DNA of 38,377 bases from a virus (IMGVR_UViG_2531839475_000013), one strand, 5' to 3'. Positions 35,991 through 36,290 are shown, counted from the first letter of the stretch. A program made the numbers and translations. Notes: generated by a model from the sequence alone, not told the origin.

Positions 35991-36290
35991 GTGAGAAAGT
36001 TAAGCCGACTTGAAAAATATCACATGAACAAGGTTTCAATGCGCAGTCCGTCAAAGATTGTCGCCGTTACTCCTGCGGCGATAGAGATCGAAAAACGCGC
36101 GATTGAAAGAGAGAAAAAAGGGCAGTTCCGCATTGCCGCTCACCTTTGGCTTCAGTGTATGGATGTTGCTTCTGGTGATGTTGAGCGTGCAAGGATCGCG
36201 GTTCGCAGGGACCAATGTATCACAAAAGGTAACGGCCTTCGCCGTGGCGACTATAGCGGCATAGGATGTTGTGGGGTGGTTTATGACTAA
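35991..36290 (+). CDS. PerC/Pch-like transcriptional activator (start uncertain)
   Basis: Core EKKGQFRIAAHLWLQCMDVASGDVERARIAVRRDQCI matches the PerC family pattern as I recall it; possible starts at 35991 (GTG), 36024 or 36039. Confidence 0.45.
   Translation: MRKLSRLEKYHMNKVSMRSPSKIVAVTPAAIEIEKRAIEREKKGQFRIAAHLWLQCMDVASGDVERARIAVRRDQCITKGNGLRRGDYSGIGCCGVVYD

Follow-up and report, generated by a model that had tools for sequence, protein, structure and literature searches.

The gene at positions 35991-36290 of the 38,377-nt viral DNA stretch analysed here (the window) is one of the core early genes of temperate Uetakevirus phages. Its identity as an early gene of the epsilon15 gp31 type with a PerC/ANR core is essentially certain. 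Judged from its sequence, the encoded 99-aa protein belongs to the PerC/ANR core superfamily and lies outside both the full-length PerC/Pch clade and ANR proper, since its match to the PerC profile (Pfam PF06069) is partial, the C-terminal part of PerC and Pch is missing, its ANR score falls below the cut-off, and its third core helix carries no Trp. By analogy with characterised relatives, it may act as an early phage regulator that lacks a DNA-binding domain of its own and remodels H-NS-type complexes or binds a partner regulator, a reading put forward tentatively and with somewhat less than an even chance of being right. The relevant features, by position in the window, are:

32635-33219, + strand: prophage repressor gene (HTH), by annotation; the repressor role is shown for its ZX5 ortholog ORF21 (PMC9782041)
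33240-33266, + strand: intrinsic terminator after the repressor gene, also an annotated terminator in phiV10
33277-33353, + strand: PL-like promoter of the early-left operon, with TTGACA at 33311, a 17-nt spacer and AATTAT ending at 33339
33824-34645, + strand: gene for a RecE-like PD-(D/E)XK nuclease
34615-35583, + strand: ORF of the RecT gene; the RefSeq start corresponds to 34642
35633-35881, + strand: gene for an AlpA-family excisionase/regulator (PF05930, 24.2 bits against a cutoff of 21; PHROG 66)
35878-35994, + strand: ORF for a 38-aa membrane protein (PHROG 17484, E=4.7e-27; epsilon15 gp32, phiV10 gp35)
35991-36290, + strand: PerC-like coding sequence, 99 aa from a GTG start; ortholog of epsilon15 gp31, phiV10 gp34 and Tyrion gp32
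35991-36092, + strand: N-terminal extension of the PerC-like protein (residues 1-34), with a conserved KLxxLEKYH motif; missing from PerC and Pch
36093-36230, + strand: PerC/ANR-type helical core (residues 35-80), from Pfam PF06069, the ANR model, hhalign and AlphaFold2
36231-36287, + strand: conserved C-terminal tail (residues 81-99, GNGLRRGDYSGIGCCGVVYD), with low AlphaFold2 confidence at residues 84-99
36283-36932, + strand: MT-A70 adenine methyltransferase gene, frameshifted by the loss of one A
36929-37123, + strand: DUF1382 gene, the last of the operon
37127-38377, - strand: tyrosine integrase gene (P4-type), convergent with the operon

The element that carries the gene can be placed by DNA identity. 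Over the 1.2 kb surrounding the gene, identity is 98-99.9% with phiV10, vB_EcoP_ZX5, the O157 typing phages 9 and 10, YDC107_2 and others; over the first 58% of this stretch, which ends with the PerC-like gene, it is about 78% with epsilon15, SPN1S and Tyrion. Because of these identities to phiV10-type and epsilon15-type phages, the window is a Uetakevirus prophage, that is, an epsilon15/phiV10-type podovirus with a lambda-like regulatory layout, rather than one of the lambdoid prophages mentioned in an earlier note on this DNA. Of 5426 complete E. coli genomes, 558 (~10%) contain this 1.2-kb stretch, and related prophages are located at the 3' end of guaA (PMC9782041). The mosaic of window positions 1-12000 is not found entire in any complete E. 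coli genome, the best of which covers 86% of it.

The gene and its label are already known from public records, because phiV10, the epsilon15-group phages and RefSeq carry the same PerC label. RefSeq names WP_001335975.1 a "PerC family transcriptional regulator", the phiV10 record of gp34 (PhiV10p34) bears the note [quoted passage not shown], and epsilon15 gp31 and Tyrion gp32 are labelled "transcriptional activator". Membership in the gp31 group of Uetakevirus is indicated by a match to PHROG 868 over positions 1-99 of 99 (E=5.7e-62) together with synteny. Orthologs are full-length in all 36 matching phage records, all of them epsilon15-like, with hosts in Escherichia, Salmonella, Enterobacter and Klebsiella; in every match, identity is 64% or higher and coverage of the protein 92% or higher, and 35 of the 36 cover at least 97%. 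A profile search of 1.84 billion representatives returned only 52 clusters at E<=1e-3, of which 20 reach E<=1e-10, all with query regions that extend past the core (35-80), and the remainder form a generic PerC/ANR-like fringe.

The gene lies in the early-left operon of the prophage, in the order RecE-like, RecT, AlpA/Xis, 38-aa membrane ORF, PerC-like, MT-A70 and DUF1382, followed by the convergent integrase. The recombination-operon setting proposed earlier is borne out, as the PerC-like gene shares its operon with the RecE-like and RecT genes. The terminator at 33240-33266 divides transcription of the repressor gene from this operon, which begins at a PL-like promoter with a 10/12 sigma-70-like match. 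This promoter is flanked by two perfect TTACC-N5-GGTAA palindromes (33277-33291 and 33339-33353), which are predicted repressor operators. The same motif is the annotated repressor-binding site of epsilon15; it occurs three times in the immunity intergenic region and has 13 matches across the window against 0.66 expected by chance. Overexpression of ORF21 demonstrated the repressor function of the corresponding protein in ZX5 (PMC9782041). No promoter-like site was found from 33340 to the PerC-like gene. The gene should thus be expressed after infection or induction, together with the recombination, excision and methylase functions, and silent in a stable lysogen, because the operon promoter is bracketed by repressor operators, an expectation that is based on motifs. 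Some transcription from the repressor gene may still pass the terminator that follows it. PADLOC and Rfam gave no match in the region.

The genes from alpA to the methylase are chained by overlapping start and stop codons. The GTG start of the PerC-like gene shares bases with the TGA that ends the 38-aa ORF before it (GTGA), an arrangement typical of coupling, and this ORF, which is annotated in phiV10, epsilon15 and Tyrion, is translationally coupled to it. At the other end, the ATG of the methyltransferase at 36283 and the PerC-like stop at 36288-36290 produce the overlap that had been noticed before, which amounts to 8 nt. The methyltransferase is indeed frameshifted, with TCAAG changed to TCAG by one missing A at about 36699; this is the single difference in that stretch from the 99.9%-identical YDC107 prophage, and the site is intact in all 54 related loci that match there. 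Synteny of the AlpA/38-aa ORF/PerC-like trio was seen in phiV10, epsilon15, Tyrion and a Kosakonia prophage, and gp33, the AlpA/Xis ortholog in epsilon15, bears the annotation "excisionase and transcriptional regulator". The methylase module that follows the trio varies and consists of MT-A70, Dam, or a methylase set apart by DUF1317 and wHTH genes.

The open reading frame at 35991-36290 on the + strand exists as first read, with 99 codons from a GTG, and it contains the peptide EKKGQFRIAAHLWLQCMDVASGDVERARIAVRRDQCI quoted at that time as residues 41-77. Public records differ on where the protein begins. RefSeq WP_001335975.1 starts at the ATG at 36039 (83 aa) and the phiV10 record at the ATG at 36024 (88 aa), while the long form is annotated in epsilon15 and Tyrion with an ATG at or near the homologous start position; the epsilon15 ATG stands exactly opposite the GTG of the window at 35991. 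The first 16 residues are kept among orthologs of several genera, and an alignment shows KLxxLEKYH with Y10 and H11 nearly invariant. A scan of IMG/VR viral contigs with the ortholog alignment recovered near-identical copies only, and was used for the start codon and the frameshift rather than for diversity of context; among these copies the start codon is GTG in 47 and TTG in 1. The 99-aa form with the GTG start is probably the best gene model, and the RefSeq and phiV10 starts probably lie too far downstream, because the N-terminus is conserved, dN/dS over codons 2-16 is 0.15 against epsilon15, epsilon15 has its ATG at this position, and the GTGA overlap couples the start to the upstream ORF.

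The coding sequence is under purifying selection and functional, because dN/dS for the whole gene is 0.12 against epsilon15, 0.11 against Tyrion and 0.21 against the Kosakonia prophage, with dS near saturation. The dN of the C-terminal tail (residues 81-99) is 0.07-0.15. Of 48 near-identical IMG/VR loci, 47 encode exactly this protein, and its sequence is the common E. coli allele. It is scarcely credible that the ORF is a decaying passenger of the operon, as the frameshift in the adjacent methyltransferase might suggest: the selection analysis, the near-identity among loci and the full-length presence in four host genera effectively refute this reading. An antisense ORF at 36051-36299 (82 aa) is likewise rejected as unlikely, because synonymous sites of the + strand are saturated, with strong purifying selection on the + frame.

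The relation of the protein to PerC is a true homology confined to part of its length. Residues 35-80 match positions 5-50 of the 90-position Pfam profile PF06069 with 30.1 bits (E=6e-7), above the gathering score of 22.6 bits, so that the profile search proposed as a check in the earlier note came out positive. So did the alignments: BLASTP gives 40% identity over 60 aa to authentic EPEC PerC (E=2e-10) and 40% over 40 aa to O157 Pch (E=1e-6), where perC was taken from plasmid pMAR2 of EPEC E2348/69 and a pch gene from an O157:H7 chromosome. A comparison by hhalign of 20 orthologs with five full-length PerC/Pch-type proteins aligned residues 31-91 of the window protein with residues 2-64 of PerC (97.7% probability, E=1.6e-12). 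The conserved pattern of the family (LE.xG..RRAA..W ... ER ... RR..C) fits the core, as all seven columns that are invariant in a 20-sequence alignment taking in PerC, Pch and distant relatives are kept (E41, R47, A49, W53, R66, R73 and C76).

The limits of this homology are equally clear when the profile is calibrated on its own members. PerC and Pch, with a mutual identity of 47% across 87 aa, score 143 and 149 bits over positions 1-90, against 30 bits over positions 5-50 only for the window protein. The alignment stops at residue 91 and the protein ends at residue 99, so the full-length PerC/Pch architecture is not present; the segment common to PerC and Pch corresponds to profile positions ~51-90, with invariant G76 and R84 in their alignment. 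On the ANR side, model NF033650 (NCBIfam) matches residues 35-77 with 23.6 bits, higher than PerC (18.2) or Pch (13.6) and below the curated cut-off of 32 bits. The ANR signature consists of A10, E14, A22, W26, A29, W43 and R47, and the Trp of helix 3 is essential in Aar (PMC4983702). The window protein keeps the first four of these residues as A37, E41, A49 and W53, has C56 instead of A29, and has no Trp in helix 3 (residues 63-80, ERARIAVRRDQC). The size and architecture of ANRs (<10 kDa, three helices) are also not those of the window protein, with its 99 aa, four predicted helices and conserved tail. ANRs are moreover encoded in genomes or loci with an AraC/XylS partner, and no AraC-family match was seen among the window ORFs scanned.

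Structure prediction by AlphaFold2 with the ortholog alignment gave a mean pLDDT of 71.6 and predicted helices at residues 6-17, 28-42, 46-59 and 63-80, with block means of 80-89 across residues 31-80 and low values at residues 84-99. The tail nonetheless has a consensus among orthologs (RRGDYSGIGCxGVVYD), in which DYSGI aligns with NYSDI of PerC. A PDB sequence search returned nothing meaningful (best E = 0.99). A structure search of BFVD gave no significant E-value, and its only high-TM matches are phage proteins of about 60 aa; the top ones, of 60 aa and with target-normalised TM of 0.85-0.87, include one named "ANR family". Matches to TPR-like folds are generic, and neither Pfam nor the fold searches found an HTH or other DNA-binding fold in the protein. 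Some distant relatives (~145 aa) carry the core after an N-terminal region with sub-threshold winged-helix (MarR/TrmB-like) matches, which suggests that the PerC/ANR core itself is not the part that reads DNA, because these relatives fuse it to a separate candidate DNA-binding region.

On the proposed reading of the gene as an early regulator, the repressor-controlled PL-like promoter would transcribe it after infection or prophage induction, and the protein would be translated in a chain with the AlpA-type excisionase, the 38-aa membrane peptide and the DNA methyltransferase. By analogy with characterised relatives, it would have no classical DNA-binding domain. It could then alter transcription in one of two ways suggested by the behaviour of Pch and Aar, either by remodelling silencing complexes of the H-NS type or through contact with a partner regulator, and the expression of phage genes would benefit while the phage excises or develops lytically. 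Pch clears H-NS, StpA and Hha from the LEE1 promoter and so activates it (PMC4764244), and Aar, an ANR, directly binds AggR and H-NS (PMC4983702, PMC5570504). A direct role in DNA binding keeps some plausibility, because Pch binds DNA in ChIP and is reported without co-precipitation of H-NS (PMC4764244). The need for anti-silencing is not obvious, since GC content is about 50% across most of the prophage and drops in no more than two AT-rich segments (2-4 kb and 6-8 kb). Counted against the H-NS or partner mechanism are the missing helix-3 Trp that is essential in Aar, the ANR score under cut-off and the generic nature of the TPR-like matches. Literature searches on epsilon15, phiV10 and Uetakevirus with PerC found no functional work on any Uetakevirus ortholog, and an apparent mention of Pch in a paper on Gifsy-1 is the name of a plasmid.

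The other readings of the gene differ mainly in what the PerC/ANR core is taken to do. The earlier note had seen in it a possible prophage-borne regulator of host genes, taken here as a lysogenic-conversion factor of the Pch/PerC type that would switch on a virulence regulon of the host, ler/LEE1, where this is an attaching/effacing E. coli. Its PerC-family part stands, by PF06069, BLASTP and hhalign, with all invariant residues of the core kept; Pch proteins are themselves prophage-borne (PMC4764244), and phiV10-type phages infect and lysogenise O157:H7. The Pch-like activator part fares badly and must be considered very unlikely. The match is truncated, as the protein is without the C-terminal 25-40 residues of PerC and Pch and reaches 30 rather than 143-149 bits. 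The genomic context is also different: pch lies between the lysis genes and the terminase of a lambdoid prophage (a moron site) and perC follows perA and perB on pMAR2, whereas the window gene is found in neither setting and belongs to a repressor-controlled early operon. Orthologs are kept in phages of Salmonella, Klebsiella and Enterobacter, genera from which the LEE is not known, and for this reason the conserved function is unlikely to be LEE activation. The nearest hosts listed are ETEC, ST648, and chicken and human isolates, with no named attaching/effacing serotypes. Family membership is in any case no predictor of activation: among PerC-family proteins with published tests, some activate LEE1, others repress it and others leave it unaffected, and the effect of PICI PerC-like proteins is repression or nil (PMC11773190, PMC6092414). 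Finally, lysogeny by ZX5, which is 98.5% identical to the window in this region, left adhesion, invasion and virulence of the host unaltered, a result for the whole phage and not for the PerC-like gene singly (PMC9782041).

An anti-activator of the ANR kind, with net repression as its outcome and with a host AraC-family protein, the phage AlpA/Xis or the repressor as its target, is unlikely, though several observations fit it. The ANR model scores the window protein above PerC itself, the signature residues A37, E41, A49 and W53 are kept (PMC4983702), and one top viral structural match is named as an ANR. A further parallel is EcCIMP1_025 of a PICI, which represses LEE1 and has been suggested to be ANR-like, and PICIs are reported with AlpA and PerC family regulators, much as the adjacency to an AlpA-type gene is conserved here (PMC11773190). 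Set against this are the sub-cut-off score, the missing helix-3 Trp and the extra conserved N- and C-terminal segments; nor was an AraC-family match seen among the window ORFs scanned, which were a subset of all. A conventional, sequence-specific activator of phage transcription, acting for example on int/xis, the methylase or late genes, is less probable again. The "transcriptional activator" label of phage records, the ChIP signals of Pch on DNA (PMC4764244) and the position of this early gene next to excision and integration genes speak for it, but the label rests purely on Pfam similarity, as the phiV10 note states, and no DNA-binding fold was detected. Among the specific targets, a late-gene role is unlikely, because a separate regulator gene (phrog_536, 27444-27782) holds the Q-like position ahead of the terminase and the PerC-like gene is in a PL-type operon; control of the adjacent methylase is unlikely, because the PerC-like gene is constantly present beside a methylase module that varies.

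As a discovery, the finding recovers a standing PerC-like annotation and adds little to it. The "transcriptional activator" label is based only on a partial Pfam match, and it should not be equated with "virulence activator", because the C-terminal part of PerC and Pch is missing, the protein falls between the PerC and ANR models, and the gene belongs to an early operon. The correction of the start codon to the 99-aa form is probable and useful. What is gained beyond this is a testable hypothesis on what PerC/ANR-core proteins do for phages. If the protein acts on H-NS complexes or on AlpA/Xis, this would tie a very common group of E. coli and Salmonella prophages to regulation at the level of the nucleoid and would help to account for the recurrence of PerC-like genes on phages and PICIs. 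It is conceivable, though on balance doubtful, that the PerC/ANR core is an ancestral early-regulator module of mobile elements that acts, during induction or infection, on H-NS-type complexes or on a partner regulator such as AlpA/Xis, and that PerC, Pch and the ANRs are later exaptations of it. If so, a common prophage, carried by about 10% of the complete E. coli genomes, could on induction bring about a temporary rewiring of host genes that H-NS silences.

Among known systems, the closest counterparts are epsilon15 gp31, phiV10 gp34 and Tyrion gp32, which share with the window gene its length, its operon position and its AlpA/Xis and 38-aa membrane-ORF neighbours. Protein identity is 99% for orthologs of phiV10-type phages and 78% for that of epsilon15, and the window differs from these systems in its frameshifted downstream methylase. 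PerC (EPEC pEAF/pMAR2) and PchA/B/C (EHEC lambdoid prophages) are also small proteins of mobile elements and have in common with the window protein the helical core with the invariant E, R, A, W, R, R and C; the homology covers its middle part (residues 31-91), which corresponds to the first two-thirds of PerC/Pch, counted from the N-terminus, and to the ANR unit of three helices. PerC and Pch, however, run 25-40 residues longer at the C-terminus, including a conserved MG...FR.Y segment that the window protein does not have, whereas the window protein has its own N-terminus of 30 residues, unrelated to theirs. The ANR family (Aar, Rnr) likewise has this core of three helices, including its conserved face of A, E, A and W; compared with it, the window protein is larger (99 aa), carries extra conserved termini, has no Trp in helix 3 and scores 23.6 bits against the 32 of the cut-off. 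The PICI PerC-like proteins (EcCIMP1_025, EcCICFT073 and EcCIEDL933) are encoded by phage-related elements that also encode AlpA-type regulators (PMC11773190), and they differ in that their genes reside on satellites, whereas the window gene resides on a phage.

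The PerC-like gene, an ortholog of epsilon15 gp31, is annotated with different starts across databases, giving a product of 83 aa in RefSeq, 88 aa in phiV10 and 99-101 aa in epsilon15 and Tyrion; in the window these starts correspond to 36039 for RefSeq, 36024 for phiV10 and 35991 for the long form. Conservation and dN/dS over the first 16 codons favour the long form, which argues that the RefSeq and phiV10 gene models are probably truncated. Certain distant relatives encoded outside the window, each about 145 aa long (P0138, P0145), join the PerC/ANR core, the helical segment common to PerC/Pch regulators and ANR proteins, to an N-terminal region whose winged-helix (MarR/TrmB-like) matches all stay below threshold. 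P0145 scores above the ANR cut-off (36.5 bits), and this architecture was not found discussed in the PerC/ANR literature examined.

One missing A (TCAAG to TCAG) within the conserved EHSRKPD region inactivates the neighbouring methyltransferase gene.

36283-36932: MT-A70 adenine methyltransferase gene, frameshifted by a one-A deletion at about 36699

Because the site is intact in all 54 of the related loci with a match at this position, either the deletion is an error of sequencing or the gene has become a pseudogene very recently. At 33824-35583, two separate, overlapping ORFs encode the RecE-like nuclease and RecT, as in RefSeq E. coli records, whereas the phiV10 record annotates them as one 1761-nt fusion CDS.

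Two segments (2001-4000 and 6001-8000) are AT-rich, with 37-41% GC against about 50% in the rest of the window, and probably represent accessory or tailspike modules gained in recent times. They span the following ORFs, none of which has a Pfam match.

2294-4483, minus strand: 729-aa ORF
6257-7120: ORF
7137-7649: ORF
7767-8180: ORF

The palindrome TTACC-N5-GGTAA, which is the repressor operator motif of epsilon15, occurs at 13 sites in the window versus 0.66 expected (4588, 4968, 6007, 24259, 27325, 27343, 30196, 30258, 32180, 32517, 32565, 33277 and 33339). Besides the copies in the immunity region and at the PL-like promoter of the early-left operon, further sites lie near the BRO-N antirepressor gene, ahead of the small terminase gene and within the replication region. 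This extension suggests that many promoters are controlled by one repressor.

24595-24668, plus strand: tRNA gene (Rfam, 71.7 bits)

The ORFs around this tRNA gene are on the minus strand, and one of the TTACC-N5-GGTAA sites is at 24259.

Two RNA genes are found directly upstream of the BRO-N antirepressor gene and overlapping its start (5019-5201).

5019-5095: isrK (Rfam, 74 bits)
5115-5201: C4 antisense RNA (Rfam, 79.5 bits)
5097-5936: BRO-N antirepressor gene

This arrangement resembles the RNA-controlled antirepressor module of P1 and P7, and the three elements together look like a module of that type under RNA control.
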